64,000 nucleotides of DNA from assembly GCA_032718475.1 (NCBI GenBank), contig JAUCBJ010008916.1, positions 1 to 64,000 on the forward strand, given 5' to 3'. Positions within the stretch are counted from its first letter, which is position 1. Each line of letters starts with the position of its first letter. Origin of the DNA: Nemertoderma westbladi (lineage: Eukaryota; Animalia; Xenacoelomorpha). This document shows, piece after piece, positions 5,827-34,627 of the stretch. The notes beneath the pieces were generated by a model. The model searched no databases and was not told the DNA's origin. It worked only from the letters and a program-made list of their open reading frames with translations. Position numbers and translations under genes: made by a program.

Positions 5827-7766
5827 ACTAGGATACTACTACTAGGATCGGCATGCTGCATTGCAGCTGCATTTTTAAGAATGCTGTGCCGGCTTGTCAA
5901 CAAAATTACACCGCCACAACTCCCTATCACCCATGACATTTGCTAGATCATCCGCATCTTCAAGGCCAGTGTCATTTAAGATGCGTCTCAAGAAAGTCAT
6001 GGGCTGTCCACCGTGGTTATTCACTCCATGAGGCTGCCAAAGTACAAGATTATGCACTGGCTGGTCCTCACGGCGAAAGCAATGTCCTGCAAAGCGGAGG
6101 CGATTTTGTTCTAGTGTCAAGCTTGGGGGAACCAATGAGACACCTCCAATGTTATATAGTGTCTGGTTGGAAATGTGTGCTGTGCATTGTACTTGACACA
6201 ATGAACCCGGCGTAGCATTCTTGTGAATGTGCCATCCAGAGATTTGGTGTCCTCAGCAGTTAGAGCCCAGCATGGACTCCCGTAGAGGAGTACTGGAACG
6301 ACTGCTGCTCTAAATAATCGGACCTTAAGTTTCCGATTAATTCTCGGTGACTTCCAAATCCTGGAAAGCCTATTCAAGGCTGCCCATGCCTTTCCCTTAC
6401 GTATTCGAAGGTCCTCACCTGACTTCCGGATCCATGATCCCAGGTAACAGAAGTCGTCCACATGCTCAAGCATACCATCCTTTGAGCTTATGCTCATCCG
6501 ATCAGAGACTTGCTGAGGACTTTCAAAGTTAACTGTCAAAATTTTGGTCTTTCTGGAGTTAATAAAAAGACCAACACTAGAAGCAGCATGTTCTAATGAG
6601 CTGAGGAGCCGTTGGGCTCCCTCTAATGATTCTGAGAGTACTCCTAAGTCATCAGCAAAGTCTAGATCAGTTAGGTACTTGGCAGGATTTCGTCGACTTC
6701 TGGAGCCAGTAGGTGGAGTTATCATCACCCCATCATCATTATGATGATCTAAGGACATGCGTAGAACATAGTCAACCACAATAATGAACAAGAATGGTGC
6801 AAGTGTGTCTCCTTGGAGGACGCCCCATAACACTTCAAATGGTTCTGTGTCACCGTCAACAGTAGACACAAATGTTGTCGAACCAACGTATACTGATCTG
6901 ATTGCTGCAATAATTTCATCAGGAATCCCATATAATGAAAGTATGCTGAACATACGTGAGCGAGAGACTGAATCAAAGGCCTTGAATAAGTCAACAAAGA
7001 TAACAGCCAGATGCCTGTCTTTCTTTTTTGAGAATTCTTCAATTATCTTTCTAAGTGCCAAAATGGGCTCCATGGTCCCACGACCTTTACGGAACCCATT
7101 CTGATTTCCACGGAGCAGTCTCTCAATGGGATCCCTGATGCGATTTAATAGAATCCTATTGTATAGCTTTGCAGCAATCGAGATCAATGAGATTCCCCGA
7201 AAAGAACCATAGAGTGTTAGATTGCCCTTCTTGGGAACTGACACCAACTTATTTGTTTTCATTTCTTGTGGGACTCTTGTTGTTCGGTACATGTCTACTA
7301 TGATGGGATAGATGAGCTTTAAACACTTTTAAAAGACTTTTAAAACACTTTTAACATTTTAAAGACCTCAGGGGGAACACCATCTACTCCACTGGCACGA
7401 TTGGTCTTAATGCTCTTTGCAGCAGCCTTCACTTCTGCAAAGGAGATATCGCCAATGGGAATATCTGGGAGTACAGACTCAGACACTTTTACTTCTATAA
7501 AGTTATCAGGCAATACCCTGTCATTATTGAGGAGCTTTTCAAAGTGGGCTTTCCAACCATTGAGGCGATCGGCTGGTGATTCCGCCTTAACCTTGGTGGT
7601 TGGTTGGCTTTTCCGCCCAGTAAGCAAATTTATCGATTTCCATGCCTGGGATGATTGCCTGCTGTCGTCAGCATCATTGATGGCATCAACCTGTTGGTTT
7701 ATTAGCTCCTGTAGATTAACAGAGTACTGCCTGTTCAGGGACCTAGATGCAGCCTTAACTGCATTC
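5827..7766 (-). mobile_element. 5'-truncated RTE-clade non-LTR retrotransposon, frameshifted RT
   Basis: ORF pieces 7340-7627, 6117-7292 and 5875-6201 carry RT motifs PKKGNL, QNGFR, VDLFKAFDSV, GVLQGDTLAP, FADD, YLGS and an RTE-like C-terminus (RLRFAGH...DRELWR). Short (TAG)n-like tail near 5830-5848; a local duplication at ~7320-7345 breaks the frame. Confidence 0.9.
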
Positions 7767-9377: not shown

Positions 9378-12300
9378 AATGAAGAAAGCGAGCTTAGCAT
9401 ATGAGTACCACTGTGTTACTGTTTCAACCATTGTCTGTCTAATGAAGAAAGCGAGCTTAGCATATGAGTACCACTGTGTTACTGTTTCAACCATTGTCTG
9501 TCTAATGAAGAAAGCGAGCTTAGCATACGAGTACCACTGTGTTACTGTTTCAACCATTGTATATCTAATGAAGAAAGCGAGCTTAGCATACGGGTACCAC
9601 TGTGTTACTGTTTCAACCATTGTCTGTCTAATGAAGAAAGCGAGCTTAGCATACGAGTACCACTGTGTTACTCTTTCAACCATTGTCTGTCTAATGAAGA
9701 AAGCGAGCTTAGCATATGAGTACCACTGTGTTACTGTTTCAACCATTGTCTGTCTAATGAAGAAAGCGAGCTTAGCATATGAGTACCACTGTGTTACTGT
9801 TTCAACCATTGTCTGTCTAATGAAGAAAGCGAGCTTAGCATACGGGTACCACTGTGTTACTGTTTCAACCATTGTATGTATAATGAAGAAAGCGAGCTTA
9901 GCATACGAGTACCACTGTGTTACTGTTTCAACCATTGTATGTATAATGAAGAAAGCGAGCTTAGCATATGAGTACCACTGTGTTACTGTTTCAACCATTG
10001 TATGTATAATGAAGAAAGCGAGCTTAGCATATGAGTACCACTGTGTTACTGTTTCAACCATTGTATGTATAATGAAGAAAGCGAGCTTAGCATATGAGTA
10101 CCACTGTGTTACTGTTTCAACCATTGTATGTATAATGAAGAAAGCGAGCTTAGCATATGAGTACCACTGTGTTACTGTTTCAACCATTGTATGTATAATG
10201 AAGAAAGCGAGCTTAGCATATGAGTACCACTGTGTTACTGTTTCAACCATTGTCTGTCTAATGAAGAAAGCGAGCTTAGCATACGGGTACCACTGTGTTA
10301 CTGTTTCAACCATTGTCTGTCTAATGAAGAAAGCGAGCTTAGCATATGAGTACCACTGTGTTACTGTTTCAACCATTGTATGTATAATGAAGAAAGCGAG
10401 CTTAGCATACGAGTACCACTGTGTTACTGTTTCAACCATTGTATGTATAATGAAGAAAGCGAGCTTAGCATATGAGTACCACTGTGTTACTGTTTCAACC
10501 ATTGTCTGTCTAATGAAGAAAGCGAGCTTAGCATACGGGTACCACTGTGTTACTGTTTCAACCATTGTATGTATAATGAAGAAAGCGAGTTTAGCATACG
10601 AGTACCACTGTGTTACTGTTTCAACCATTGTATGTATAATGAAGAAAGCGAGCTTAGCATATGAGTACCACTGTGTTACTGTTTCAACCATTGTATGTCT
10701 AATGAAGAAAGCGAGCTTAGCATACGGGTACCACTGTGTTACTGTTTCAACCATTGTATGTATAATGAAGAAAGCGAGCTTAGCATACGGGTACCACTGT
10801 GTTACTGTTTCAACCATTGTATGTATAATGAAGAAAGCGAGCTTAGCATACGAGTACCACTGTGTTACTGTTTCAACCATTGTATGTATAATGAAGAAAG
10901 CGAGCTTAGCATATGAGTACCACTGTGTTACTGTTTCAACCATTGTATGTATAATGAAGAAAGCGAGCTTAGCATACGAGTACCACTGTGTTACTGTTTC
11001 AACCATTGTATGTATAATGAAGAAAGCGAGCTTAGCATATGAGTACCACTGTGTTACTGTTTCAACCATTGTATGTATAATGAAGAAAGCAAGCTTAGCA
11101 TATGAGTACCACTGTGTTACTGTTTCAACCATTGTCTGTCTAATGAAGAAAGCGAGCTTAGCATACGGGTACCACTGTGTTACTGTTTCAACCATTGTAT
11201 GTATAATGAAGAAAGCGAGCTTAGCATATGAGTACCACTGTGTTACTGTTTCAACCATTGTCTGTCTAATGAAGAAAGCGAGCTTAGCATACGGGTACCA
11301 CTGTGTTACTGTTTCAACCATTGTATGTATAATGAAGAAAGCGAGCTTAGCATACGGGTACCACTGTGTTACTGTTTCAACCATTGTATGTATAATGAAG
11401 AAAGCGAGCTTAGCATACGAGTACCACTGTGTTACTGTTTCAACCATTGTATGTATAATGAAGAAAGCGAGCTTAGCATATGAGTACCACTGTGTTACTG
11501 TTTCAACCATTGTATGTATAATGAAGAAAGCGAGCTTAGCATACGAGTACCACTGTGTTACTGTTTCAACCATTGTATGTATAATGAAGAAAGCGAGCTT
11601 AGCATATGAGTACCACTGTGTTACTGTTTCAACCATTGTCTGTCTAATGAAGAAAGCGAGCTTAGCATACGGGTACCACTGTGTTACTGTTTCAACCATT
11701 GTCTGTCTAATGAAGAAAGCGAGCTTAGCATACGGGTACCACTGTGTTACTGTTTCAACCATTGTATGTATAATGAAGAAAGCGAGCTTAGCATACGAGT
11801 ACCACTGTGTTACTGTTTCAACCATTGTATGTATAATGAAGAAAGCGAGCTTAGCATATGAGTACCACTGTGTTACTGTTTCAACCATTGTATGTATAAT
11901 GAAGAAAGCGAGCTTAGCATACGAGTACCACTGTGTTACTGTTTCAACCATTGTATGTATAATGAAGAAAGCGAGCTTAGCATATGAGTACCACTGTGTT
12001 ACTGTTTCAACCATTGTCTGTCTAATGAAGAAAGCGAGCTTAGCATACGGGTACCACTGTGTTACTGTTTCAACCATTGTCTGTGTAATGAAGAAAGCGA
12101 GCTTAGCATACGGGTACCACTGTGTTACTGTTTCAACCATTGTCTGTCTAATGAAGAAAGCGAGCTTAGCATATGAGTACCACTGTGTTACTGTTTCAAC
12201 CATTGTCTGTCTAATGAAGAAAGCGAGCTTAGCATATGAGTACCACTGTGTTACTGTTTCAACCATTGTATGTCTAATGAAGAAAGCGAGCTTAGCATAT

Positions 12301-14756
12301 GAGTACCACTGTGTTACTGTTTCAACCATTGTCTGTCTAATGAAGAAAGCGAGCTTAGCATATGAGTACCACTGTGTTACTGTTTCAACCATTGTCTGTC
12401 TAATGAAGAAAGCGAGCTTAGCATACGGGTACCACTGTGTTACTGTTTCAACCATTGTCTGTCTAATGAAGAAAGCGAGCTTAGCATACGGGTACCACTG
12501 TGTTACTGTTTCAACCATTGTCTGTCTAATGAAGAAAGCGAGCTTAGCATACGGGTACCACTGTGTTACTGTTTCAACCATTGTCTGTCTAATGAAGAAA
12601 GCGAGCTTAGCATATGAGTACCACTGTGTTACTGTTTCAACCATTGTCTGTCTAATGAAGAAAGCGAGCTTAGCATACGGGTACCACTGTGTTACTGTTT
12701 CAACCATTGTATGTATAATGAAGAAAGCGAGCTTAGCATACGAGTACCACTGTGTTACTGTTTCAACCATTGTATGTATAATGAAGAAAGCGAGCTTAGC
12801 ATATGAGTACCACTGTGTTACTGTTTCAACCATTGTCTGTCTAATGAAGAAAGCGAGCTTAGCATACGGGTACCACTGTGTTACTGTTTCAACCATTGTA
12901 TGTATAATGAAGAAAGCGAGCTTAGCATACGGGTACCACTGTGTTACTGTTTCAACCATTGTATGTATAATGAAGAAAGCGAGCTTAGCATACGAGTACC
13001 ACTGTGTTACTGTTTCAACCATTGTATGTATAATGAAGAAAGCGAGCTTAGCATATGAGTACCACTGTGTTACTGTTTCAACCATTGTCTGTCTAATGAA
13101 GAAAGCGAGCTTAGCATACGGGTACCACTGTGTTACTGTTTCAACCATTGTCTGTCTAATGAAGAAAGCGAGCTTAGCATACGGGTACCACTGTGTTACT
13201 GTTTCAACCATTGTCTGTCTAATGAAGAAAGCGAGCTTAGCATATGAGTACCACTGTGTTACTGTTTCAACCATTGTCTGTCTAATGAAGAAAGCGAGCT
13301 TAGCATACGGGTACCACTGTGTTACTGTTTCAACCATTGTATGTATAATGAAGAAAGCGAGCTTAGCATATGAGTACCACTGTGTTACTGTTTCAACCAT
13401 TGTCTGTCTAATGAAGAAAGCGAGCTTAGCATATGAGTACCACTGTGTTACTGTTTCAACCATTGTATGTCTAATGAAGAAAGCGAGCTTAGCATATGAG
13501 TACCACTGTGTTACTGTTTCAACCATTGTATGTCTAATGAAGAAAGCGAGCTTAGCATATGAGTACCACTGTGTTACTGTTTCAACCATTGTATGTCTAA
13601 TGAAGAAAGCGAGCTTAGCATATGAGTACCACTGTGTTACTGTTTCAACCATTGTATGTCTAATGAAGAAAGCGAGCTTAGCATATGAGTACCACTGTGT
13701 TACTGTTTCAACCATTGTCTGTCTAATGAAGAAAGCGAGCTTAGCATATGAGTACCACTGTGTTACTGTTTCAACTATTGTCTGTCTAATGAAGAAAGCG
13801 AGCTTAGCATACGGGTACCACTGTGTTACTGTTTCAACCATTGTCTGTCTAATGAAGAAAGCGAGCTTAGCATACGGGTACCACTGTGTTACTGTTTCAA
13901 CCATTGTCTGTCAAATGAAGAAAGCGAGCTTAGCATACGGGTACCACTGTGTTACTGTTTCAACCATTGTCTGTCTAATGAAGAAAGCGAGCTTAGCATA
14001 TGAGTACCACTGTGTTACTGTTTCAACCATTGTCTGTCTAATGAAGAAAGCGAGCTTAGCATACGGGTACCACTGTGTTACTGTTTCAACCATTGTCTGT
14101 CTAATGAAGAAAGCGAGCTTAGCATATGAGTACCACTGTGTTACTGTTTCAACCATTGTCTGTCTAATGAAGAAAGCGAGCTTAGCATACGAGTACCACT
14201 GTGTTACTGTTTCAACCATTGTATGTCTAATGAAGAAAGCGAGCTTAGCATACGGGTACCACTGTGTTACTGTTTCAACCATTGTCTATCTAATAAAGAA
14301 TGCGAGCTTAGCATACGAGTACCACTGTGTTACTGTTTCAACCATTGTCTGTCTAATGAAGAAAGCGAGCTTAGCATACGAGTACCACTGTGTTACTGTT
14401 TCAACCATTGTATGTCTAATGAAGAAAGCGAGCTTAGCATACGAGTACCACTTTGTTACTGTTTCAACCATTGTCTGTCTAATGAAGAAAGCGAGCTTAG
14501 AATACGAGTACCACTGTGTTACTGTTTCAACCATTGTATGTCTAATGAAGAAAGCGAGCTTAGCATATGAGTACCACTGTGTTACTGTTTCAACCATTGT
14601 ATGTCTAATGAAGAAAGCGAGCTTAGCATACGAGTACCACTGTGTTACTCTTTCAACCATTGTATGTATAATGAAGAAAGCGAGCTTAGCATACGAGTAC
14701 CACTGTGTTACTGTTTCAACCATTGTATGTCTAATGAAGAAAGCGAGCTTAGCATA
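9378..14756. repeat. 63-bp minisatellite array, ~85 copies (5.4 kb)
   Basis: Unit AATGAAGAAAGCGAGCTTAGCATAYGRGTACCACTGTGTTACTGTTTCAACCATTGTMTGTMT; variation almost confined to four biallelic sites. Confidence 0.98.
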
Positions 14757-15440
14757 CCCTGACGGCTCGGTACCCTGACACTAACCTGGCTCGGTACCCT
14801 GACACCAACCCGGCTCGGTACCCTGACACCAACCCGGCTCGGTACCCCGACACCAACCCGGCCCGGTACCCTGACACCAACCCGGCTCGGTACCCCGACA
14901 CCAACCCGGCTCGGTACCCCGACACCAACCCGGCTCGGTACCCCGACACCAACCCGGCTCGGTACCCTGACACCAACCCGGCTCGGTACCCCGACACCAA
15001 CCCGGCTCGGTACCCCGACAACAACCCGGCTCGGTACCCTGACACCAACCCGGCTCGGTACCCCGACACCAACCCGGCTCGGTACCCCGACACCAACCCG
15101 GCTCGGTACCCCGACACCAACCCGGCTCGGTACCCCGACACCAACCCGGCTCGGTACCCCGACACCAACCCGGCTCGGTACCCCGACACCAACCCGGCTC
15201 GGTACCCCGACACCAACCCGGCTCGGTACCCCGACACCAACCCGGCTCGGTACCCCGACACCAACCCGGCTCGGTACCCCGACACCAACCCGGCTCGGTA
15301 CCCTGACACCAACCCGGCTCGGTACCCCGACACCAACCCGGCTCGGTACCCCGACACCAACCCGGCTCGGTACCCTGACACCAACCCGGCTCGGTACCCC
15401 GACACCAACCCGGCTCGGTACCCCGACACCATCCCGGCTC
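14757..15440. repeat. 24-bp GC-rich minisatellite, ~28 copies
   Basis: Unit CCYGACACCAACCCGGCTCGGTAC, directly abutting the 63-bp array. Confidence 0.97.
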
Positions 15441-15662
15441 AGTGCCATGAGGTACCTGAAGAGAAGGTTCTCCTTAAGTACAACAGACCAGTAGTAGATG
15501 CTTTTATTTCGTTACTGCGAGCTATAAATATATGAATAATAATAATCTTTAACATTTTTACAAAGAACCATTGAACCATATAATAACCATAACCAACCGT
15601 AATAACTAACATATCACTAAACTATTTCATTCAAGTGCGGAATAATTTTAATATGCATAATA

Positions 15663-18062
15663 TTGTCATTATGTTTTAATTATACTATTTTTAATAAAAC
15701 TAACGCCAGAGCACAAAGCGAAGCAGCGACAGAAGTATATAGAGATAAACCAAACTTAAAACATTTATTATGTAATTTCAACGCCAGTGCCACCCATATA
15801 GCACCTTTGTATGTACCATATAATTATAATTACCGTGCCTTACTTACGAATTGCCATGAACTTATTTACGCCATATTATTAATTCCGTTGTTCGCCAATA
15901 TTCATTTATTACTATTAAAGTGCAATTTACTATATAACAGGTTAGAGCGTCCCATACTGAGTTGCCAGCAAGGGGCTTGTTATATGTTTATGGCGGGTTT
16001 ATTTAGAATTGAAACTCGGCGCATATGTATATATCTTGTATATTTGATATTAATGTTTAACAAATATATTTTCTTATTACATTTACATTGTGTAAATGAG
16101 GTTTATGTAAACTTTGCTGTAAATATCCTAGCCAGTATCTATGGCAACTATATTCGCCCATTTTTGTCGCAAAAGAAAATAATATTATTAAAATCTAAGC
16201 CAAATCTTCTTCGAAAAACTAAATATAAACCAATTAGACTTTCATTGTTAATTCTTTTACAGATCTTAATACCGCAAGTATTCATCCTAAATCAAATTCA
16301 CTTTTTCCATACTATAATCACTGCCACTGCTGTATTAATAGATTTCCTACTCGCAATATGGCTTGTTACAAAACAATACGGTAAATTAGAATGTAGAAAA
16401 CCCACAGGTTTAGTAGGTTTAGTATGTTTAGTATTAACTATACAATTAGCGTCACAATTGTCGGTACATAACCGTTTTACTGTTACAGCACACGCCTACA
16501 ATATAAAAGTACTTAGTCCCAATAGACGTTACTCAGGTTCTTTACTTAGTCCACGCCTAACAGTCCCAAGAGTGCACCAAGTAACTCATATGCTCACACA
16601 ATTTTTTATAAGTTTAGGTATCAATATAATAGTTTACATATCAGGCAACATTTTAGCAAACATATTCGCCCAATGCAATGATATAGAAACTAACCCGGGA
16701 CCTAAAGGTACACAGCCAACTAAGACGAACAATCGACCTAATACACAATGTATAACAGTAACCGACTACATGACACAAAATCCTAACGGGGTAAATTTCA
16801 TTTTAATCAACACCCGCAGTTTAGTGAAAAATTATGAAGAATTAAAACAATTAATTATGTCTCTTAACCAGTACGCAATAATTGGAGTAACAGAAACATG
16901 GTTAAAGCGGAAACATAGTAAACAATCTATTTCAATACCTGGATATGTACATTACCGTAACGATAGGAGGAAAAGAAAGGGAGGGGGGGTTCTTATTTAT
17001 ATTCCAGAAAACTTGCCGCATAAAGTAAAGCAGGACATCCAAAATAAAAACTGCAAATCTGCATATGAGTCACTTTGGATAGAAATCGATACCAGTATTC
17101 TATTCGGCGTAGTATATCGACCCCCCAAAAATGTATCTTTTCTTGAAGATTTTCTTGAAGAAACGGAAAATGCACTGAACTACAATTATAGTAATACAAT
17201 CATAGCAGGTGACTTTAATTGTGATATGTTAGATAAAAATAATGTGAAAGTGAAGGAACTTGAAAACTATATGATTACTTATAATCTAGACCTACTTAAT
17301 GAACTTACCCCAACACGATATGGCAATGGGAAAAACAAAAACTCATTACTTGACTTATACCTCACTACCTCCCATAATAAATCCATTTATAATTCAATAA
17401 CAACACCGAGTGGCTTCTCTGACCACGATTATGTATTATTACATTGTGACACGAAGCTAAGCGCGACACCCACGTCCAAAAAAAGTAGCATAAGAATAAC
17501 ATACAGAGATTATAAACAGTTCTCAGAAAAAATGTTCTTGCAGGATATATCGCAAATAAATTGGGCCCCACTATACAATAACGCGGACATTGACAAATCA
17601 TATAATTACTTCGAACATGAAATTGAAAACGTACTAAACAGACATGCTCCTATAACAACAAAAACAATAACAGAAAACAGAACTAAGAACACTACAAACA
17701 AAAATGCATGGGAAACACAGGAACTAAAACAACTAAATAAACAAAAAATGGACTCACTATATATCTGGAGAACAACTAAAACTGATGATGATTATGCAAA
17801 CTTTAAGACGAATAGAAATAAATACAATAACTTAAATCGCACATTAAAAAATAATTATATGAAATCAAAATTTGCTGGGGCAAAAAATGCAAAATCACGC
17901 TGGAAAATAATTAACTCAATTTTAAATAAAAAAAGTACGAGCGATATGATTAATACAATAAAAACTAAAAATGGAAAAATTGAACACGGTTGCAAAATAA
18001 TAGCTAATATACTCAACTCTACATTTTTAACACTGGGACTACAGACTAGAAATATCACTTGA
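15663..18062 (+). mobile_element. CR1/L2-group LINE fragment: hydrophobic leader, 2A-like motif, APE endonuclease; truncated before RT
   Basis: APE motifs NTRSL, IGVTETWL, RNDR...GGGVLIY, VVYRPP, AGDFN, PTR, LDL, SDH, then a typical tether (RHAP...W...RNKYN...W..IN). DIETNPGP at 16680-16703. The ORF ends at TGA 18060-18062, where unrelated sequence starts. Confidence 0.88.
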
Positions 18063-18698: not shown

Positions 18699-19608
18699 AG
18701 CTCGGCCAATGAGAGCTTTTCCTCTTTGTGTTGAAAGCTACCTGCAACAGCTCACAGGGTTCAGTGTGTTGGTTTTTCCAGAGCCTAAGAACATCGGCCA
18801 TGGAATTATTCTGAATTATTCCAACATTAGAACGATTTTAATTATAAGAACACATAACTGTTACCGCAGTGGACCGGCACGGTACGGTACGGTACGGGAC
18901 GGTACGGTACCTACTGCTGTATTGCACATTATTTACTGCTATTTACTGTTTGTTATTAATTGTATCAGTTGTTTACATATTGTTATTTGGAGAATAACGA
19001 TAAACGATCAGAAACCCCGATCTTCTTGATACACTAAGGTTAGAGAGACCGGTTACATATAGCAATTGCGACTTATATTATCGTGGTTTGTAGTGAATTG
19101 AATGCTATTTTATAGGCCCTACAAATGTCGGTTGCTATTCTCTTTATATATGATTAAAATCAGTGACTATCGGCAATTCAGTGTGCAGCGGTGTGCAATA
19201 GTCTGTATGTGCTTGTCCGCGTAACAAAGCATCTCCTAAAGAATGCGCCTTATGTGTAACTTATAATCCATTCCGTTGTGTTTAGTGTAAGCCATAGCTC
19301 TGTTTATATAGATAGAGCGCCACGTCCTAAAGGAACTGCTAATATTTCCCGAAAGTGAATGATATTTGTCAGGAATTATATTAACGATCAATCGAATAGT
19401 ACGGTAGGCCTGCACCGCAATCAAATTAAAGCATCCGAATCCAGTCTCCCGGGTATATCCAGCGGGTGAATGGTCGCGCATAGACTGGCTTCGGCTAATG
19501 TTGGATTTATTTGTGTCAAATACTTGTCATAGGCTAAAGTCGATTTATAACCTAGAAGATATATAGATTTGGCGGGTTAAACTGCCAAAGGTCTTAAAAG
19601 CGCGAACA
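18699..19608 (+). repeat. Element 1 5' LTR (portion shared with the 3' LTR)
   Basis: Near-identical to 33562-34453 apart from a few substitutions and one ~18-bp indel near 19105. Confidence 0.92.
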
Positions 19609-21977
19609 GTAACAGTTATATATTCTGATTGCAGTGTAGGCAATAAATACAGTTTACTATTGTTCTGGTAAGAACAATAACGGTTATTGCTTCTTTATTG
19701 CAGTAGGCAATAAAGCTGAAGTACCGGCCAACCGGTACCCAGTAGGCCTGACTACCTAACCACCCGGACCGGTACCTACAGCAGTACAGGTACAGCAGTA
19801 TTATTCGATTGTGATTACTATATACCGGTAGGTCTTAATAATTAATCGGGGACGCCTGGTTTTTATTGGGATTTTACTTAGGCCTATTTCTGTCAGTTTT
19901 ATTTATTTGTAGGCTAATATTGAGCAGAAGGTGTGTAAGCCTGCTCAGATTGTACAGATAATTTGTAGGCTGGACTGTTGTCTGACTGTTGTTAAGTCTG
20001 AAGGGACTGTAGTGTGTGTAGAGCGTATGTCCGAAAAAGTACTAGTTAGGAAAGTAGGGGCTGCCAGTGCTGTGAGGTGAACCCCCTCGAAAGAATAAGT
20101 CGTACTACTGGGTTAGAATGCATACTAACTAACCATTTCGGAGTCTGCATATACTGTAGTTTATTTAGGCTTGATAGTAGTCTGCCAGCGTTTGGTCTGT
20201 ACTTTGTTTGTGTAGTCTGCACGGGTAGCGTATTATTTCTTATCTAGATAATTTGTAGGCTGGATTTTGTCTGGCTGTTGTTAGGTCTGAAGAGATTTCG
20301 GTGTGTGTAGAGTGTATGTCCGATAAAGTGCCAGTTGGGAACATAGGGGCTTCTAGAGCTGTGAGGTAAACCCCCTCGAAAGAATAAATCGTACTACTGG
20401 GTTAGAACGCATACTAACTAACCATTTCGGAGTCTGCATATACCGTAGTTTGTTTAGGCTTGATAGTAGTCTGTCAGTATTTGGTCTGCATTTTGTTTGA
20501 GTAGTCTGTACGCGTAGCGTAATATTTATTATTCAGAGTTTATGCGATTATTCGCAACATTCATATCCCCAAGTTTATTCCTACAGTAATTGTGCTTGTT
20601 ATATATACCGTTATAGTTAAACTAACCCCGGTACTACATCAGGGCTGCTTGGCGTAGGTAAAGACTGGTGATTTTGTGCCCCGGTCACTCCAGCAGATAC
20701 CGTGGTTCTTTTGGCTGTTCAAGTATTTTTAACTACTGATTATTTGTTGTATAAGTACTTGTACCTAATTTAGGGTTTAGTGTACAGTGTTTTCCGATGG
20801 TGATTAGTGTGTAGGCAGTATATTTGTGTTGTAAAGTGGTTAATAGGCACGTTGGTTCTGGTAGACCGCGGTAATTAACTTCTAGGTAAGAACACTCCGT
20901 GATACATAACGTAGTACTTATAGCGATACGGCTATAAGTTGTCAGACGGTGGTATTTTCCTATCTGGACAACGCAGTATATTTACTACTACTTATTATTT
21001 CAAATACCGTAGTACCCTGTCCATTGTAATAACCAGATATTCTAACCCTTTGTTAGGCTGGTTTGTAGACTTCTTGTAAAATTACCCTAAAAATTCGTAC
21101 TAGTAAATTTTGTATTTATTTAGAGATTGTAATCTCACCCCGAATTGTACGTAATTTGTAGTATTAAGTAACTTAGGTAAATTAGAATTATTTGTTTTAG
21201 TGTCCAACAAGTAGCACTTCACTGAGAGCGCACAGCTTCTGTGTAGTGACTCCCCCCAGAAATAATAACATTTATTTCAAATATTGACAAAAACCCATTA
21301 AACGGGTATATATATATTATAAATCAACTCAAACGATTTATAAATAGTAGGCCTGCCATACAACAATTAGGTCTTAATCAGTTGGACCACTGCTTAAACA
21401 ACGGTAATAAAGTAAGCAAAGTAACCAAGTAACCCCTAAAATTTCAGAAATTCAATTATTCTAAAATAATTGACATACCGGTATTTACCATAGGCTTATT
21501 ATATTTATTTCTATAAATTTAGGCTGAAATCATACCGGTATTCTGTAATTAATTCTAGTTCATAATTATACTTATATATATACTATAAGTGTAAGCTGTA
21601 TACCGGTATTCACGATAGGCCTATTATATATTTATAAATTTAGGCTGAAATTATACCGGTATTCTGTAATTAATTCTAGTTCATAATTATACTTATATAT
21701 ACTATAAGTGTAAGCTGCATACCAGGATTCACGATAGGCCTATTATATATTTATATATATTTGTGCTGAAATTACCTACCGGTATTCTGTGACAAACCTA
21801 GTCTGTAATAATCCTTATATATACTATAAGCATACCGGTATTCTAATATATTATATATATATCACGCTACACTGAGTAGCAGTATCGGTAATTAATTACT
21901 AGGCTAACGGTGATACTGAATTTCTAGACTTGCTTAAACTGTAATATAGCAGTAGGCATTCAACTGTACAAACCAAC

Positions 21978-24900
21978 ATGTCTGACACAAAGCAAAACCT
22001 GTCAGACAGTCTCCTAGATACAACCATATGTGACCCAGACAGGAGTGTGGAACGTGTAGGACCGAAGTTCAACTCACCTCCTACTGTAAGAAAGATCATC
22101 CCTCCCGTAGTAATATCAGACCCTAGGCTAGTCCAACATCGTAGGTCTATCATAGGCACTCGAGCTCAGGTCAAGCGGGACCAAGAAGCAGCAGAACAGC
22201 AACTTCCCGCGAGCCGAGAACTTATTTCTCAGCGGCCCGACAGCTCCAGTAGTGCGGATACTGTAGAGCTGACACCCGAGCACGGAGCAAAGATGACAGA
22301 TGCGGTTTATTCGGATCCCCTTCTCATCCTTCCTGCAGCCGTACTCACGAGGTTATTGATTGCGGTGGAGGAACACCAGATTGATTGGGCGAGAAGTAAA
22401 CAATCGACCTAGGATAGTTATGCGGGATATACAAGGGAAGAACTGAAGTCTATTGTCGAGTCGCAATGGAACTTCCCCGGACCCAGACTCCCGTTTGACT
22501 TATCGGAAGCTGCCTGGGAAGATATACACAGGATGGGAGTGACAAAAGAAACCAGCGATCCAGCTGTATGGAAGAGGTCAGCAGCCGGATACGTACAGGG
22601 ATTCTTCAGCTCTATGGAGAGATTAGAGGAACAATTGTTTCGACAACCACAAGGACCTCAAGAGCAGGGAAAGCTGCTTTATCAAGTTAGAGAAAGAATT
22701 CTAAGAATCAGACTAATCTTATCTGCCTTTGAGGAGGCTTCCAAAAGAAGACAAGACACGTCGTTGCAAGTTGCCGTAAAGACTTGGTTTCAGCGGGTGA
22801 GCCTCCAAGTTCAAAGAACTACCCCGTGGAAATCTCAGTTGGATGAGCGCTCAACCCATGGAGAATCAACAGACGCTACCTTTTCCCAAGTGGAAAGCGA
22901 AGCGACAGCAGAGAAACCGCATAAGAGGGATGCCATTGACATCTATCTGTCAGACTATCAACGCTTTGTAGGGGACGAAGAATTGAGTAGATGGCTGGAT
23001 GGACTTAGCCCTAATAGTGAAGGAGCCAAGCTTGTGTTGGACGCAATCGATGCGGATAGGATAGCTGCGAACCAAGCTAAATTTGATGAAAGCATCCGCA
23101 TCGCTAAGGTTCAAGAAGAACAAGTAAAGAAAAAACGTATAGAAGACAGAAAGATAGCAGCAGCGGCAGCAGCAGTGGCAGAAGCAGAAAGAAAGGTGGC
23201 AGTGGCAGAGGCAGAAAGAAAAGCGGCCTTGGCAGCTACAGTGGCAGAAGCAGAAAGAAAAGCGGCTTTGGCAGCTGCAGTGGCAGAAGCAGAACGAAAG
23301 GCGTCTGAAGAGACTGCCCAACTAGAGTTGGAAAATCTTCAAGAGAGGCAAGACAACTTTAATAAACAGTTAACAGCTAGTAATATGCAGATGATGAATT
23401 GATCTACTCCCAAAAGACAAGGTTATACATCATCTGAGGAAGGCGGTACCACCGATCCTGAAGGCGGAGGAAATAGATCTCGTCTAAGTAGGCGTAGAAG
23501 AACATCTCACCGTCACAAATTGCCTGATTTGCCCCCAGCTGTTAGAAGGCAACTAACTAACACAGACTTAGGTAGTGCAGAACCCACAGACCAAATAATT
23601 AAAATAGAAAGACTCCCTACTATAGTAGATGAGCCTGAAATAATTAGGCCTGTTCTTGAAATCACCCCTTCGGTGATAGAGACACCTGTGCTCCCAGAAC
23701 CTACCTCTAAATTCCCTCTGCACAGCACTAAGCTACCTGTGCCCCACAGAACCACCCCTGAAAATGTTCATGTCCCTGACTCCGAGCGAAAAATTAATGA
23801 TTTGTCGCCCGTTGTCCCTCGTCCGCCCGCTACAACGTTGGCGGCTCCCGCTTCGGCGGTCGAGTGGGTGGATGAGAGACGGCGGGGGATGGATCTCCTG
23901 CTCGGGCAGATGCAGGAGACTGTTAAGCAGTTCAAGGGCACAGTAAGGGAAAGTAGGTTAGAGTTGCAAGAAGTGCAGCAAAGTATCGCATTAGAACGCG
24001 ATAAATTAGTAAATACACAAAAGGGTATACCACCACCCCCGGTAACAATGTGTCAACCTGTTAGGTCTGAAGTATCTCATGCGCAAGGTGTGGAGCCTAC
24101 ACGCATCTATACTGCTAGTGAAGTGGAAACTCCTATAGTAAACCCTATTAAGGGTAATTATAAACCCGTTGACAATGATATCCCATATAGACTTGATAAT
24201 AATCCGAGAAATTTATATACCGATAACTCGATATTAAATAACACGATGCACCAAGAAAGTTTTACGCGTCAAATGGCTAGAACCGAAGCCCGTCAAGCGG
24301 TAAAGGTGGGAGAGATCGTCAAGTTCAATGGAGATGAGATGAAATGGTTACCTTTTAATGAATATTACAAATATAACATACAGAACTCTGTGCTATCTAA
24401 TGGAGAGAAACTTAGATTCCTCATCGAGTGCTTGGAAGGATCTCCCAAGTTAATGGCGTTAAAGTTTATTGGACATCCAGACGGATTAAGGCAAGTTCGG
24501 GATACACTAAACATCAGGTATGGTAATAGGAATAATATAGCTAAATATTTGTAAGCAAAATTAGTAGCGCCCCGAAAGTTCATTAGCAGCGGGATAATAG
24601 AGTTTTCCGATGAGATTCAAGAGATCTGTAGACAATTAGATTGGTTAGGTAAGTCTCATGAATATCAGAGTTCTATGGTTATTGGAGCCGTGGCTTCTAC
24701 TTTACCGAAGGGTGGAGTAGGTACACGCTGGGATAAGAAAGTGTTATATATGATGGAACAACAACGACGAGACCCTACCATGGCTGATCTCATGTCATTC
24801 TTAGATGGAGAAGTGAAATTACAGCTCCTAAAGCAGTCCAGAGAGAAGACACCGGAAAACAAGGTAAGTGAGAAACCCGTTTCTAGGAGAAAGGTAACAC

Positions 24901-27900
24901 CAGTGTGTTATACAGACGACGGCGAAAGCCAGACTTCTCAAGGAGAGGATAGCGGGAAAGACACTGAAAGATCTTATTATGTCAATAAAACGCCTAAAGA
25001 ACAGGTAAGTAAATTCAAGTCTCGAACCAATGACAGGAGAGAACAGGTAAGAAAAACTCCTCCTACGTCTCCCAAGAGAATTCAGGTGAGAAAGCCCGAA
25101 GAAAGAACGAGTGTGCACAATGTTATTCAAAATAAGGTAAGTAACATCAAATCGAAATGTGCGCTATGTGACGGGACCCACCGTTTGAATATGTGTGATG
25201 AATTCCTGAAGAAATCATTAACGGAGAGACGGGAAGTCATGTGGGATAAGCGGTTGTGTTATAATTGCCTCAGACAAGGACACCAACGGCGAACCTGTTA
25301 CTCCGACACAAGGTGTGCAAACTGTGGTGCGAAACATCATATCTTGTTGCACACTGAATTTGAGCGAAACAGCCAGAGTCAGGTAAGTGATTCCGAACTA
25401 CATGTCCAATTCAGTGATGTGAACGACACTGACCAAAGTTCTGAGATGGAAGGATTCTATACAGATGAATTCTCCGACGAAGATGAATCCTGTTACATGA
25501 TAAATACCGCAGTGTATCGAGCACTTACGTATGAAAAAGACACAGACAGCGACCTTACCCTAACTACTTCTGATCGACAACCATCTTGGAAACCGCCACC
25601 TTCCAATGTAGGAATCCGAGAATTTCCTGTAGTACAGGTAAGGGTCCACGACCTAAAAGGAGTTATGTAGTGAACGCCCTCCTTGACTCCGGTAGTACAG
25701 GAACATTCATCGACAAAGAACTAGCCGAAGACATCTTTGCTGGACAACCCAAGTTCCGAACTAAGCTAAACATGTCAGGAATTATGCAGGTTTGGAAATC
25801 TACAGTAATAGCGGATTATTATGTAGGTGCGTTGTCCACCCCCCAGGATGAACTAGGAGAACATAGTATAAGGTCAGTAAAAATGGTGGCGATAAAGAAC
25901 TTTGCTACCACCCAAGTGGAACCTTATAATTGAGATGAGGACGATTTCACCCAGCAGCTTGAAATACCTAGATTCAACACCGATTACCCTGGAGTGCAAA
26001 TACTCATCGGTCAAAATGCGCATGAAGCGCCCGAGACATTGGAGAAACGGCCTGCTCAACCGCAACCACTACAAGCTTATGCGGGAAGAACTAGAGTGGG
26101 TTGGTACTTTACGGGCCCTTCCCGTAGAACTCTCATGGAAAGATTACCGAAAGACCAGGTATATCAAGTAAGAGAATGGGAAGTCGAGGGCAGTGAGTTA
26201 GACGATCCAACTGAGGGAACACCATACTCCTCAGATAATGACGATGTCCACCAACTTTTCGACGAAGAGAATACCATTGATCTCCTTAAGGAAAACGAGA
26301 CTTGGCAAAACCAAGTGAACTTATGTCAGCTCCTTCTTCCATCAGAGCGAGACGACTATAACGACAAACTTAATGACGTCATTGAACGTTATAATGCCAA
26401 GACTCGGGATGAACACGCCGTACGATTCTTTACTCAAGAGGCTGTAGAGCCCAATTCATACGATAAGGCCCTATCAGTAGAAGAAGAAAGAGCCAAGCAG
26501 ATCCAAGAGACAACTACACGTTTTCTTAAAGATCAAGGTAGATATGAGATCGGTTTACCTTTCCGAAAGCGAGAACCAAAGTTCGTAAACAACAGACCCT
26601 TGGCGGAGAAAAGAATTGCTCAACTACATCGACGCCTTACGGCAAATTCTTCAGCTAAAGAAATGTATCAAACGCAGTTGAAGAAATTTATTAGCAAGGG
26701 ATATGCGGAGCTAGTACCGGAAGAAACACCTATAACTGAGAGAACGTATTATTTAACTCACCATTACGTTCCCAAACCCGGTAAACCCCATGAGGTACGA
26801 GTGGTGTTTGACGGCTCCGCCCTCTATATGGGCCAATCCCTTAATTCCGAATTGTTACCCGGACCCAACTTACTCCAATCCTTGTTGGGAATACTCCTAA
26901 GATTAAGACAATATTCAATTGCTTTCGCCTCAGATATAGAAGGCATGTTCTTACAAGTCAAGGCGCTGGATAGGGATTGAGATAGCCTACGATTTCTGTG
27001 GTGGCCTGAAGGAGACCTCAACCAGAAACCGGTGGAGTACTGGATGACCATCCAGGCATTTGGGATAATCTCAAGCCCTTCAAACGCCTGTTCAGTGGTG
27101 CGCACCACTGCGGATGACAACCGAGAAGCCTTCTCTAAAGAGGTGATTGACAACATCAAGCGGGATATATACATGGACGATAATCTAAAGTCCCTTCCAT
27201 CAGTCGAAGAAGCCATTGACGTCGCTAAAGGAACGGTAGAGTGCTTAAAAAGAGGTGGATTTCGATTAACTAAATTCACCAGCAACTCCCGTGAGTTTCT
27301 GGAGTCGATCCCGGTAGAAGATCGAGGAGCGAAAGACCTAGATCTAATAAAAGATGATCTCCCAGAAACTAAGACCCTTGGTTTGAAATGGGACACAGAA
27401 AGAGATATCCTGTTTTTCCAACTAAAACAGCGAGATAATCCAGTTCGGACTAAACGGATTTGTTTAAGTATCCTGAGCACTTATTTCGATCCATTGGGAT
27501 TTATTAGCCCAGTTATATTGATTGCTGGGAGTTTAGTACAACAAATGTGGCTTGAAAACCACTCATGGGACGATCCACTTAAGGGAGAATTATTAAAGAA
27601 GTGGATGAAATGGGAAGATTCTCTACCAGCCATCGAGAACTTTATAATTTCCCATTCATATTTTGGTCATGTTCTCCCTACGTATTCCTATCAACTCCAC
27701 GTGTTTGGAGACGCCAGCGATATGGGAATAGGTATAGTAGCCTACCTAAGGGTGGAAACTCCGGACGGAATCAAAGTCGCCTTGGTTACCTCCAAGGCAT
27801 TGATAAACATTAAGTTGAAAGTTCCTCGAGCAGAGTTAAAGGCGGCTCTATACGCTACAGCCATCGGCCGGAATGTAACAGAACAGATCGACTATCCACT

Positions 27901-30043
27901 GGAGAAAACTGTCTATTGGACCGACGCTTTACTCGTGTTGGAGTATATAACCAATGAAGTCTGTCAGTTCAGCGTCTTCGTTACCAACAGAGTAGCCATT
28001 ATACTCAGTCGCACAACGATGGATCAATGGAGACATTGCCCCGGAACGATTAATCCAGCAGACATCGCCTCCAGGGGAGCAACTCCACAAGAACTGGTAG
28101 ATACTCCAGACTGGTTAGGTGGACCCGACTTCCTCTACAAAGAAGAAGAAGAATGGCCTCCTCATCTTACTACCACAGAGATTAGACAGGCCAAGGGAGC
28201 GGAGAAAGTCAAACCTAAAACTCGGGCGAGTAAATCGAAGTTATTCAAACCCATGGTAGATCTGTCTGTACTACATACTTCCGGAGACGACGCTTTGGAT
28301 CAGAAACCCACAGCCACAAATAAGCTTGTTGTGGAAATCCGTGAGAAGGATTGGAAATCTGGAGTACCAGACGTCTCGCAAGGACTCTCACCTCTTCTGC
28401 AGAGAGCGATACATCACTACAGTTCCTGGAATCGGCTCTGTAAGGCCGTTACATATTTAAAGAGATGTTTTCACCATCACTACTCCGGGATGAAGACCAA
28501 AAGTGATACCGCTCCAATAACATCGGTGCAAGTCCATGTTATTAAAGATCTTCCCAAATATAAGATATCCGACAGGTTTCTGAAGGAGAAGATCAGTTAT
28601 CAGGAGCATGAAGAAACCAACAAGCAGATGCTGAGACTCCTGCAATGCTATGAGGATTCCGATAAGTATTTCCTGTTGTTAAGGCGCTTAAGGGATCGTT
28701 TCTCTAGCACAATGATAGATGGGTTGATACGTGTTGGAGGAAGATTAACGAATGCTCCATTATCCTTTGACACTAAGTTTCCCATACTCATTAGAAATCT
28801 TGAGATACAAGTCAAGATGATTGTAGATGTTCACAGCAAACTTTATCATGCTGGTAGAGAACGAGTTCTTAGCGAAATTCGAACTCGCTATTATTTTTAT
28901 AAACCCCGTAGAGCTCTGAACCAAGTTCTTAGGAACTGCATACCCTGTAGGAAAGCATTCAGTAGGCCTTTAACACAGCGAGAGGCAGAATTACCTAGGG
29001 AACGAGTAAGCTTCTATGAACCACCCTTTACTAATACCGGTGTAGATTTATTTGGCCCTATTGAAGTATATCGTGCTAGGACTATAGTCAAGAGATGGTG
29101 TGTCATCTTTGTTTGTATGACTTGTAGAGCTATCCATCTCGATATGGTGAACGATTTATCTACCAACAGCTTCCTATTAAGCTTACGACGACAGATCGCT
29201 TGCTTTGGAACTAGTAACACGATGAGATCTGATAAGGGAACAAACTTCATTGGTGCCAACAATGAAATCAAAGCTTACGTCAAAGATTGGAACCAAAGAC
29301 AGGTGGACGATCAGCTACGAGTAACAGCGTCTAGCTGGACCTTCAACGCCGCCGACGCCCCTTGGTGAGGAGAAAGTTGGGAGAGATTAATAAGAAGTGT
29401 GAAGACCGCATTTCACTTTATAGTGCCATGCCGCGCGTATCTCACCGACGAACTTTTGCGGACGTTAATGGAGGAAATCGCCGCCTATCTCAACGAGAGA
29501 CCGCTTATGCCAGTCTCATCGAGTCCCGATTCCCTGGAAGCGCTAACACCCGCGCACTTCCTACTGAAGAAACCTGTAGCCATGCTCCCACAATCGGAAA
29601 TCACAGACGGAGACGAATACTGCCGGCAAACTTGGCAACTCATGCAGTTGTTATCCCGTCGTTTCGCTGACCATTTCGAAAAACATTATCTGCCCACGCT
29701 ACAACTTCGAACTAAGTGGTTTGCGCAGCAAGAAAACGTCAGCGCTGGAGACATGGTCCTTATTGTGGATTCAGATCTTCCACGTAAGCGGTGGCAGACA
29801 GGTCGTATCATCGAGACTCACATCTCGGATGACGCTTTGGTGCGATCGGTAGAACTCGTCGTCATGCGACGTAACTTCAAGAAACCGGGAATTGTCTTCG
29901 AGACACAGCAGCTCAATCGCCCAGTTGGTCGTTTATGTTTACTGGAAAGTGACAGAGAACTCTCCGGAAACTATGGAAGGCAAGATACTCTTCCCACGAC
30001 CACCTCCCTAATCCAACAAACATCTAGGGACTCCCCAACTTAA
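21978..30043 (+). pseudogene. Bel/Pao gag-pol polyprotein, disrupted
   Basis: Gag core (KFNGD...WLPF), three Cys/His knuckles (CALCDGTH...C, CYNCLRQGH...C, CANCGAKHH), protease LLDSGS, RT (RVVFDG, DIEGMFLQV, YMDD), RNase H (FGDAS, YWTD, NPADIASRG), integrase (H..H/C..C, GVDLFGP, SDKGTNF) and Pao C-terminus (YLPTLQLRTKW). Premature stops near 22410, 23400, 24552, 25931, 26978 and 29366; frameshifts near 25655 and 25950. Confidence 0.93.
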
Positions 30044-31682
30044 CAACGGCTGGAGTGGGTGTGTGACTATATTTGTATTTGTTTTTATTCTTTTATATTT
30101 ATGTATGTATTATTATGTAATTTTATTATAATCGTTTTCGTTAATTTTATTTAGTAGAATGTTATTTTAGCGATTATTTAGTAGATTAGTGCAATATATT
30201 AGCGTTTATTACTTAATTACTTATATATTATAGATTTAGTGCGACGGCGAGAAATAATTCTTTTCTCTTTCCTTACTGTCCGTATTACATTATAAATACG
30301 TGACTACCGTAAGATGAAATGTCCGTACTTATTAAAGTACAATAAAGCTCCTACTATATTCAAGTATTATCGGTAAGTAGAGTATTAGGAATGCAAAGTT
30401 CAGATCCTCGTGTCTTGGCTAAACCAAGCTCTGGGTAGACCTTGGAAACGACTTGCCTCTTCTCACTGACATTGCTTCGTGCGATATTGCTCTCATACCG
30501 TATATTAAATAATACATATAGTAGCGTGATGTCCCTTTAACAGTAGCGTAAAACGCAAAATAAATCTGTTAAACCCTTTGACCATCTGCAATTCTAGTCG
30601 ATTAAGATATCGCGGCACCCACCGATATACTTGAAAGACAAAATTCTAGAATCAGTGGTTAACGTCCCCAGACTTGTTCTGGAATAAACCGGTGCCCATC
30701 CTAAATATTAACTATTAATATTTATAAAATCTGTCAAATTTCAGATCCTTTAACATTCTAGTCGATTAAGATATCGTAGCACTTACCGATACTCTTAAAA
30801 AGACAAAATTCTAGAATCAAGGATCCCAGTCCCCAGACTTGTTCTGGAATAAAATTGTGTCTATTTTAATATTAAATAATAGAATTGCGGGAATAAATTT
30901 AAATTCATCTTTTAATGAATTTGATAAATTGTTATTTTATACAATTTATAATATTCCCAAAATTCCATTAATTAATAGATCATGGGAGCGGAGATTCACC
31001 TATTAAGTGTATTAGTGTGCGAGAATCTCCAATATAGAGTCAATAGCCGATAAAATTCATAAAATCATGTATAAAGATGATATTGACCATTAAAGACTCA
31101 CTATTAAATAGCCTCCCAGATCTGTATGCATGGGAATTACCCTAATTCTACCGCTAGCTTTCCATAATGTCACCATAGCAACAACCACGCTAGAATTAGA
31201 AGCGAGTTAACAGAACAATAAAAAGCTTGCTCATTGAATATCATACAGAATAAATAGCACACCGCTAGTATCCAAGGATACATAATAACAACGTGACATT
31301 CTGGAAGGCACTTGACTAACGGACAAATGACCCGAATGTGTGATAGAATGTGTACCATTTGTGACAGTTACGTGGAATTTGTGCGTTTGTAGGTGAATGT
31401 TACTACTAAGGTGTGTTTACAGTAGCGAGTCGCAATTGTGAAAGTAGCCCTAACTCTCCAGTAAGAACCTGAAGTATATCTAAGCCTTTGGGACGGACGG
31501 TGGAGTGACTCGTGCTGGTTGTTGTAGTCGTTGTGCAGCTACGACGTTGGCGATAGGCACATCGGCGAAAGTACACCAGCGCTGAGGATCTCGCACTGTC
31601 CGGGGGCAGAGAGGGGTAGGCAGCGACGCCCGCTCGCCTAAATATAAACTCATTATAATATGGATAAACTTATATAGCAGAT

Positions 31683-33259
31683 ATGATTGAGTTGATAGAA
31701 GATGATCTTGGTATCAGGGAGCGATATACTCTACCTTTACAAGCGTTTGTTGATAGCTTGATACGCGGCGACGCTAGTCCAACTACTACGGAGGACGATG
31801 GTCGTTATATCGAACCGCCAATGTCCCAGGAGCAACTTACGCGTGAATTGGACTATAGAAAATTCACCGCTCGCTGTGCGCGTCGTAAATGGTACGTATA
31901 TGGACTTCTTAACTACTGGTCATCCTATCGACCTACACGATACGAACGATATAGACACCAAAAGGGAAATGGTTTTATTTAAATATCATACCCAGCGGAA
32001 GCGGAACGATAAACTGAGACTCGAACACGAAAATTCTATTCGAAACCGACTCGAAAGTGAGGATGTTGAAGAGCCGGATAAACGCAGCGACTTCACCAAA
32101 ATATCTGGAATTCCTGGGAGAAACATATCTCGATATTACCAGTCAACAGAATCTAGGAACTCGATATCCTCAAGGTATATATCATGACCGCATGGTAGAA
32201 CTCAAACGGCTCTATTCCACTATGATGTATCTTACCGCCGATCGACCGCTACCTGTTGTACCGGATAGCTTCGAACAGATGGAGGAATATTGTAAGCTGG
32301 AGAAAGATCACTCGCGTTCCCCCTACAAGACGTGCGTCTTTGGTATTATTGCGATGAATGCCCTAGACCCAACCAACAAACAGAAAGACCTAAACATCCG
32401 CGGAGACGTTGCACTAAACACGGTTTTACTCGCTATACTTGCGGGAGTTTCGAGCGAAATTTGTTTGACGTATCACCTACGCTCGTTCGACTCAGACGAT
32501 CCTTAAATAAACCAATGATCAGAGTTTCGGAATACTCGATCAGACCTCCTCATTCCCTAGTGAGACCTCAGACTCTTGATCCTATTAGTATGACGGATCC
32601 TCCCGAGCTGTACTCACTGTTCAAAGATCTAGTGTTACCTGAACAATTAGTCGGTGGCACCCCGGTTGTGGGCTTCCTAGATATTAGCCCATCCTCCCTA
32701 ACCGGATTGGGACGCGGACATTTAATATCGCCGTTTAACCCTTACCATCGTCCCGGCTTAACACGATATAACCTGTCACCAAAGTGGCGGAGAGCGTTGT
32801 ACCAAATGAGTTAGACACTATTCTACAAAGATCAGAAAAGGAACTTACGCTTGTTCAGATAAACGTAAATTGCACTAGCAAGTCCAAGCGGTAAACAAAG
32901 TAACTTTATCTCAGTTCGATCGGGAAATCCAGAATCTCTAAGAAGTTATCGAACTTGGACGACCCTATTCTCTGCGAGAGTTTTTGGATGAACGTATCCA
33001 GCTACGAGCAGAGGAAAATCAGCTCGAGGAGAAGCATATCGAAACAGCGGATACCCCGACCATAATCCTACACCTTCTGATGCAATCATATTGCACCCTT
33101 CACCCAGGAGTTATGGCCCTCCTAGTAAAGTGGCTCCCCCCAAAGAGAAAAGGATTCTTGCTAGCTTTAAAAAACTGCGTAAACGCCGTCCACGCAAGAC
33201 AGACTAACTGTTTAGAGTATTTTTATATTTTAGAAACTGTGATTTTTTATATTTTATAG
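31683..33259 (+). pseudogene. Decayed accessory ORF downstream of pol in element 1; function unknown
   Basis: Overlapping frameshifted ORFs 31683-32814 and 32984-33259 read as one protein-like sequence and are homologous to 43944-45330 in element 2. Confidence 0.6.
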
Positions 33260-33285
33260 AATTAAATCCCATTTTCTGGGAGCGG

Positions 33286-34453: not shown

Positions 34454-34627
34454 TATACTGTATGAGCGTCGTATACGTATATGTCTACTATTTAGTGTTT
34501 ATACTTTATTATTTTACTGTATAAGTACGTTGTTGTTGTGTACTGTTTATTCATTTATATTATAATCTATGTGCTTTGTATATGTGTTCTGTATAAATCT
34601 TTATTCTTTATTATTTTACTGTATATG
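34454..34627. repeat. AT-rich ~104-bp repeat remnant between the two LTR elements
   Basis: Same motifs as 46560-46910 (TTTAGTGTTTATACTTTATTATT, GTTGTTGTGTACTG, ATGTGCTTTGTATATGTG). Confidence 0.75.

Follow-up and report, generated by a model that had tools for sequence, protein, structure and literature searches.

The window, by which we mean the whole 64-kb stretch of DNA analysed here, contains a tandem pair of related LTR elements, E1 followed by E2, and all features of this pair given below lie on the plus strand. Both are BEL/Pao elements by their Pol domains. The assignment is made because Pol contains Peptidase_A17 (Pfam match, E 6.8e-34), Integrase_H2C2 and DUF5641 (E 1.4e-20), and Gag contains DUF1759 (E 1.2e-12 in E2). 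These BEL/Pao-specific domains occur together with the order PR-RT-RH-IN, and PF05380 is present in 115 of 115 homologues. The TG..CA LTRs, the short TSD (5 bp, taken from E2, as the 5' end of E1 is lost) and the polypurine tract (PPT) are also those of BEL/Pao. The closest proteins with a full-query alignment are only about 35% identical. No chromodomain match was found in Pol of E1 or E2, where only DUF5641 follows the integrase, which places them outside the Tf1/sushi group.

The LTR boundaries were set by the LTR pairs and their TG...CA ends, at 18699-19608 and 33286-34453 for E1 and at 34628-35830 and 45355-46559 for E2. Both copies are defective. The 5' LTR of E1 (18699-19608, CA at its end) is a remnant from which the first 276 nt are missing, with no match to them in the window, and it differs from its own 3' LTR by 8 substitutions over an alignment of 892 nt. 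The leader (19620-21940, 2.3 kb) contains tandem repeats of 289 bp and 121 bp and is followed by Gag, which has a long N-terminal extension without a Pfam match. The gag-pol region (21945-30043) encodes DUF1759, zinc knuckles, protease, RT (YMDD at 27170), RNase H (Peptidase_A17), integrase and DUF5641, and is interrupted by in-frame stops and one frameshift; RNase H motifs were found in E1 by a sequence check. The PPT (33278-33285) abuts the 1168-nt 3' LTR (33286-34453) with no A spacer. E2 has a 1203-nt 5' LTR (34628-35830), a TSD at 34623-34627 and 46560-46564, and a PPT at 45347-45354 followed by the 3' LTR (45355-46559), and only 4 substitutions in 1203 nt separate its two LTRs. Its gag-pol remnant (39227-42288) has lost most of RT, RNase H and integrase through internal deletions, and E2 is therefore non-autonomous. 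E1 is at least 15.7 kb long, and the deleted E2 at least 11.9 kb.

Several other features of the window are worth recording. After pol, both elements contain an extra region of about 3 kb (30050-33270 and 42300-45340) that is 85% identical between E1 and E2 and holds broken ORF pieces, six of which were scanned with no significant Pfam match. The 3' end of E1 and the two ends of E2 all lie in an AT-rich satellite of about 104 bp (34454-34627 and 46560-46899), possibly the sign of a target preference. LINE-like ORFs with RT and AP-endonuclease (6117-7328, minus strand, and 15621-18062, plus strand) lie around an array of about 85 copies of a 63-bp unit (9378-14757). Two further ORFs, uninterrupted and on the minus strand, encode a PP1-like phosphatase (49329-50291) and an ARL2-binding protein (60585-61220). 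The host is an animal, and the ARL2-binding protein shows 43-58% identity to its database matches, of which the best are from marine invertebrates and none is close.

BEL/Pao elements (Belpaoviridae, Semotivirus) are listed by the ICTV with an 18-nt primer-binding site (PBS) for tRNA-Arg or tRNA-Gly and a genome of 4.2-10 kb, and their replication is described as tRNA-primed and poorly understood (PMC8742986). E1 and E2 resemble the canonical elements in their Pol domains and domain order, their TG..CA LTRs of 1.2 kb, the 5-bp TSD and the PPT, but they are longer and have no TGG site. The 18-nt site, a typical trait of the group, in which membership itself is decided by Pol, is absent from both, as neither LTR end is followed by TGG within 57 nt. 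The initial annotation had reported that neither 5' LTR is followed by a TGG-starting tRNA PBS, and this is correct: the first TGG is at +58 in E1, and in E2 there is none in the first 60 nt after the LTR. What follows the LTR instead is a predicted non-tRNA PBS, at 19609-19619 in E1 and at 35831-35841 in E2, that is flush with the LTR end (offset 0 in both elements). Each is the exact reverse complement of a predicted self-primer 11-mer in its own LTR, at 18854-18864 in E1 and at 35068-35078 in E2, and in both the next base after the 11-mer is C. LTR+1 to +11 pairs 745-753 nt upstream. Also borne out are the claims that the 11-mers occupy homologous positions, with four differences of which all four are compensated, and that imperfect pairing runs beyond 11 bp, to 15 bp in E1 and about 21 bp in E2, where it runs into TTAATTATAA. 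The window contains a single copy of each post-LTR 11-mer, and the complements are confined to the two LTRs of the element concerned, starting at 18854 and 33717 (to 33727) for E1 and at 35068 and 45797 (to 45807) for E2.

This complementarity is real and non-random. When the LTR was shuffled with dinucleotides preserved, the 11-mer was held anywhere in 13 of 20,000 shuffles for E1 and 21 of 20,000 for E2, which gives a per-element chance of about 0.001. Counting the PBS itself, 10 of 13,666 internal 11-mers in E1 and 7 of 9,513 in E2 have a complement in the LTR. Anchored matches across the two elements are 5-6 nt at the longest, and the duplex energies of the own pairs (-18.5 and -22.6 kcal/mol) compare with -9.1 and -5.4 kcal/mol for the crossed pairs. 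Among 33 helices of at least 7 bp that the two elements share at aligned positions, the primer helix is both the longest (11 bp) and the most compensated (4), and none of 200 column-block shuffles matched it. E1 and E2 are about 54% identical around the primer and mostly 64-88% identical in the 3' half of the LTR; since the primer is in the 54% part, the PBS is tracking a fast-changing site. Searches with ARAGORN and Rfam found no tRNA genes or structured RNA in the window, only one weak match to a miRNA family (E 2.9). A self-encoded tRNA primer, as is known for Cer7 of C. elegans, is not supported here, as no tRNA was found in the window.

Public sequencing runs show how the two sites behave in other copies of this family, which is present in very high copy number (11,240 contigs from run X1). 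In E2-type contigs, the bases read at 35842 and 35851 lengthen or strengthen the pairing in about 90% of the depth (92% and 90%, respectively, in X1, and 90% and 96% in X3). Among the 40 of 114 variants that were listed, none falls inside either 11-mer, and E1-type contigs from two runs have no listed variant of at least 8% within 18800-19055 or 19609-19617. From +10 onwards the E1-type letters are heterogeneous, as seen among the 12 of 20 joint forms listed, and many leave the E1 primer at +10. In X3 the forms departing at +10 have a depth of about 2,900, compared with about 1,600 for the joint form, among those listed, in which the 11 bases are all retained, and one E1-type form in X1 departs already at +8. 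Because copies diverge from +10, the near-invariant part of the E1-type duplex is 9 bp. It should be noted that these contigs do not join the alleles of primer and PBS across 750 nt, and the two sites are linked only in the two copies in the window. Many E1-type copies also skip a 77-nt insert found in E1 at 19618-19694, which contains a hairpin (9 bp) and a near-direct copy of the primer region, after which an E2-like leader comes. This E1-specific insert may be an aberrant product of reverse transcription. Another motif, TCCTAAAG, is present twice per LTR (35462-35469 and 35557-35564 in the window), with the second copy in the deepest bin in three of four runs, and may be a cis signal. A conserved 20-mer of the LTR had no match in viral or metagenome contigs, and no relative of Pol was found among viral contigs.

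A wider comparison was made with BEL/Pao relatives. A Pol alignment search gave 96 loci. A distant direct repeat was present in 40 of them; the LTR end was examined in 24, of which five were without a CA end. Set aside were L035, L038, L057 and L087, where the repeats at both contig ends are assembly overlaps, and L092, where the repeat does not flank the Pol match. The count of relatives is thus based on 14 loci with delimited LTRs. Three of them show TGG at +1 to +6 and lack a self-complement. TGG is absent from the remaining 11, and in ten (L002, L018, L025, L032, L036, L051, L055, L060, L062 and L077, representing about seven lineages) the site pairs over 10-15 nt with the LTR of the same locus, across a GT(A/G)AG..YAG junction, with nulls of 0-1 in 300 each. 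L030 is the TGG-less locus without a full junction match. In the ten junction-type loci the stretch that pairs with the site is interrupted in the LTR by a predicted intron whose donor is GTAAG, and when any GT..AG was allowed, complementarity alone chose a GTAAG donor in eight loci. Since its sequence spans a predicted splice junction of the LTR, such a primer is possible only as RNA. Cross-pairs of at least 10 nt between relatives number 7 of 110, six of them within three close relatives.

Like E1 and E2, the junction-type marine elements have no TGG, a self-complement of 10-15 nt and a similar G-rich PPT, and C directly follows the primer in nine of the ten as well as in E1 and E2. They differ in having a predicted LTR intron within the primer and a loop of 87-278 nt, whereas in E1 and E2 the primer is unbroken, the loop is about 750 nt and there is a second helix, P2. 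A splice-junction primer was rejected for E1 and E2, as the best match is contiguous in both. A further regularity concerns the PPT: no A spacer goes with offset 0 (L032, L036, E1 and E2) and a spacer of 1-3 A with an offset of 2-4 (eight loci), so that all 12 agree, as would be expected if the end of the duplex sets the end of the cDNA. L005 and L010, from a blind scan of 17 loci, break this rule. That scan, which has 52-112 candidate ends per locus, recovered three known LTR ends and gave matching ends for two sister copies. Junction types at L005, L010, L040 and L064 and, tentatively, contiguous types at L004, L008, L035 and L038 are leads only. Nothing convincing came from the scan for L024, L034, L046 or the TGG control L006, and four further loci had no PPT match. 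In a 25-row tree (LG+G4, no outgroup) E1, on a long branch of 1.18, groups with all eight junction-type rows and apart from the three TGG rows (91/99, not starred), and a 104-row FastTree agrees on this grouping with a support of 0.84. The trees hold unnamed loci and host-named proteins, with no named BEL/Pao references.

The reading that we prefer is that E1 and E2, as BEL/Pao elements, prime reverse transcription from the 5' end of their own RNA, in a Tf1-like but convergent manner; from the sequence evidence we would give this a probability of about 0.7. That they would prime themselves by one route or another, from the 5' RNA or from a 3' LTR copy, appears highly probable. A PBS for the element's own RNA is the best reading because the site is flush with the LTR, follows its own LTR and would be splice-dependent in relatives. 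In the proposed mechanism, transcription would start either at the first base of the 11-mer, as in Tf1, or upstream. The RNA would fold back over the loop of about 750 nt, probably aided by P2, in which sequence upstream of the primer pairs with U5. The RNA would then be cut, with the element's RNase H as the most likely enzyme, to leave a 3' OH at the end of the 11-mer, directly ahead of the C, giving predicted primer ends at 18864 in E1 and 35078 in E2. The RT would go on to copy U5 and the remaining R and transfer to the 3' R. As the primer would itself be copied during plus-strand synthesis, the PBS would be rewritten in each cycle, and this would explain why the PBS and the LTR 11-mer change together. 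E2 is young and has kept the pairing with most of pol gone, which fits a requirement in cis. Self-priming in BEL/Pao, as put forward in the initial annotation, is well supported by the covariation, by the relatives (10 of 11 TGG-less loci against 0 of 3 with TGG) and by the coupling of PBS offset and PPT, while a primer formed by the RNA 5' end and a cut by RNase H stand as predictions from it.

Where transcription would start has a bearing on this mechanism, and three positions are possible. The first is the first base of the primer itself. The second lies about 90 nt upstream, where a CCAAT (18706 in E1 and 34915 in E2) and an Inr-like TCAGTGT (18761-18767 and 34970-34976) form a candidate upstream promoter (18706-18767 and 34915-34976) with the same spacing of 57 nt in both. 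The third is just downstream of the primer, if TTAATTATAA is a TATA box. This TATA-like motif, at 18838-18847 in E1, is conserved in E2 (35051-35060), where it is partly within the extended duplex, and its TATAA(G/A) begins 11-12 nt upstream of the primer. The distance from TATA to start is usually 25-31 nt. At that spacing the motif would put the start 4-10 nt downstream of the primer, which would speak against a primer at the RNA 5' end. Tf2 is described as using a start that excludes its primer (PMC5341516), and since this is known for Tf2, two starts could coexist in E1 and E2. Among relatives, the primer is preceded by a TATA at a distance of 31 nt in L051 and by A-rich boxes at 28-34 nt in L038. 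An ATTAAA at 19425-19430 in E1, conserved with E2, is a candidate poly(A) signal and would make R long.

P2 is a perfect 11-bp helix in E1, between 18820-18830 and a U5 strand at 19495-19505 that varies among copies within an otherwise conserved region. In E2 the upstream strand (35027-35046) pairs with U5 strands within 35724-35763 in two parts, 35027-35037 with 35753-35763 (11 bp) and 35038-35046 with 35724-35732 (9 bp), as seen in the comparison of shared helices with E1. The part common to both has 8 Watson-Crick bp with two compensated changes, and was matched by 1 of 200 shuffles at a threshold chosen post hoc. In both elements, complementarity of at least 10 nt to the last 200 nt is confined, within the first 520 nt, to the windows that start at LTR positions 375 and 397. 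P2 crosses the primer helix (P1) and is of similar strength. It was not seen in nine junction-type relatives, where the best nulls were 7/300 and 25/300. P2 was considered as proof of an upstream transcription start and rejected as such: because the 3' U3 copy could provide the upstream strand, P2 does not place the start site. Ty1 circularises its RNA, which is comparable to a P2 strand supplied by the 3' U3. There is also a U5 hairpin, at 19568-19589 in E1 (8 bp, 20-41 nt ahead of the LTR end) and at 35791-35812 in E2. When the structures are compared with the Tf1 pretzel, this hairpin is common to E1 and E2, and apart from the primer helix the only long-range pairing with clear covariation involves a strand that lies upstream of the primer. 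Folding was done with a nested model, in which crossing helices are impossible. Under this model the whole leader from the upstream Inr gives a primer-helix probability of 0 in both elements, with 7-14 kcal/mol needed to force it, and starts near the primer give probabilities from 0 to 1. Such modelling weighs weakly against the upstream Inr start.

The same sequences bear on an alternative in which the priming is still the element's own. Here the primer RNA would come from the 3' LTR, cut at the U3/R border, and strand transfer would be onto a second genome copy. In both elements a CA lies 25-26 nt past the T of the TATA, and the extended duplex and P2 both draw on sequence that lies within the TATA-like motif or upstream of it and is thus present at the 3' end of every genomic RNA. 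This route, however, needs two RNAs and discards the 3' R, and the relatives fit a primer from the 5' end or R, with the donor at about 40-58% of the LTR, the TATA of L051 at the distance given above, and, in six of the eight loci examined, poly(A)-like signals that follow the end of the primer by 12-98 nt. We regard it as unlikely. Somewhat less likely still is that the primer is supplied by the host, for example as a tRNA half or some other small RNA, and that the LTR pairing is a structural or regulatory fold that masks the PBS or circularises the genome. The crossing of P1 and P2 could be taken as two alternative states, and tRNA halves prime several copia lineages (PMC6317226). Against this, the site differs across E1, E2 and about seven lineages of relatives and always fits its own LTR, so another host RNA would be needed each time; TGG is lacking as well, and the window contains no tRNA-like gene. 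That the match arose by chance, or merely follows from a near-palindrome within an LTR rich in AT, is largely refuted, for although the E1 11-mer is nearly palindromic (8 of 11 the same as its own complement) and a per-element chance near 0.001 is non-negligible over a large scan, the E2 11-mer is not palindromic, the homologous positions carry their compensated changes, and the pattern recurs in relatives.

Self-priming from the element's own 5' RNA, the reading preferred above, has counterparts, known or predicted, in other superfamilies. In the Tf1/sushi group the RT cleaves a self-primer, and the PBS after the 5' LTR is complementary to the element's own LTR (PMC10085805, PMC5341516 and PMC11042837). 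Tf1, Tf2, Tj1 and Tcn1, which are chromoviruses of Ty3/gypsy, share with E1 and E2 the lack of a tRNA PBS and a short post-LTR PBS that complements the own LTR. As a criterion for the Tf1-type arrangement, PMC6317226 gives a PBS 0-5 nt after the LTR with at least 10 nt of own-LTR complement, and both E1 and E2 have 11 nt at offset 0. They are unlike the Tf1 group in having a BEL/Pao Pol, no chromodomain match, a loop of about 750 nt and a primer whose position at the RNA 5' end is predicted. The extra helix is also different, as the covarying one in E1 and E2 uses sequence upstream of the primer and the two extra duplexes of the three-duplex Tf1 pretzel connect sequence next to the PBS with LTR sequence downstream of the primer. 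E1 and E2 likely work like Tf1 in priming without being Tf1/sushi members. A second example comes from plants, where self-priming is predicted for the TAR lineage of Ty1/copia (Houba, Osr-1), with an LTR complement of at least 10 bp located 0-5 bp after the LTR (PMC6317226). E1 and E2 have the same arrangement, and TAR belongs to another superfamily and another host kingdom. The predicted TAR case shows that self-priming arose more than once already.

For BEL/Pao, no report of self-priming was found in the openly accessible literature, searched at the level of listings and the first lines of abstracts. The portions covered of PMC3601003, PMC5006619, PMC8220671, PMC6934838, PMC5445492 and PMC13524379, among others, do not describe it. 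The terms primer, PBS and tRNA were not found in the main texts of PMC554778, PMC3118150 and PMC6238403, nor were primer and PBS in PMC12440569. The independent origin suggested in the initial annotation holds up as a convergent reading, but it is not special to these two copies and would belong to a wider marine lineage. A broader version, to which we give somewhat better than even odds, is that a marine BEL/Pao lineage without tRNA priming is primed by its own RNA, independently of Tf1 and mostly with primers built by the spliceosome, and that E1 and E2 are an intron-less branch in which a 750-nt loop is closed with a covarying tether helix. If this is true, a third LTR superfamily has converged on self-priming, and cleavage of an RNA duplex by RT/RNase H would be easy to evolve. 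It would also explain why many marine BEL/Pao elements receive no PBS when annotation relies on tRNA sites, and priming in the junction-type relatives would depend on host splicing.

One further observation concerns the database entries among which the relatives were found. Sixteen contigs filed under prokaryote genomes (L081-L096) encode a BEL/Pao Pol, and these are most likely animal host DNA in the bins.
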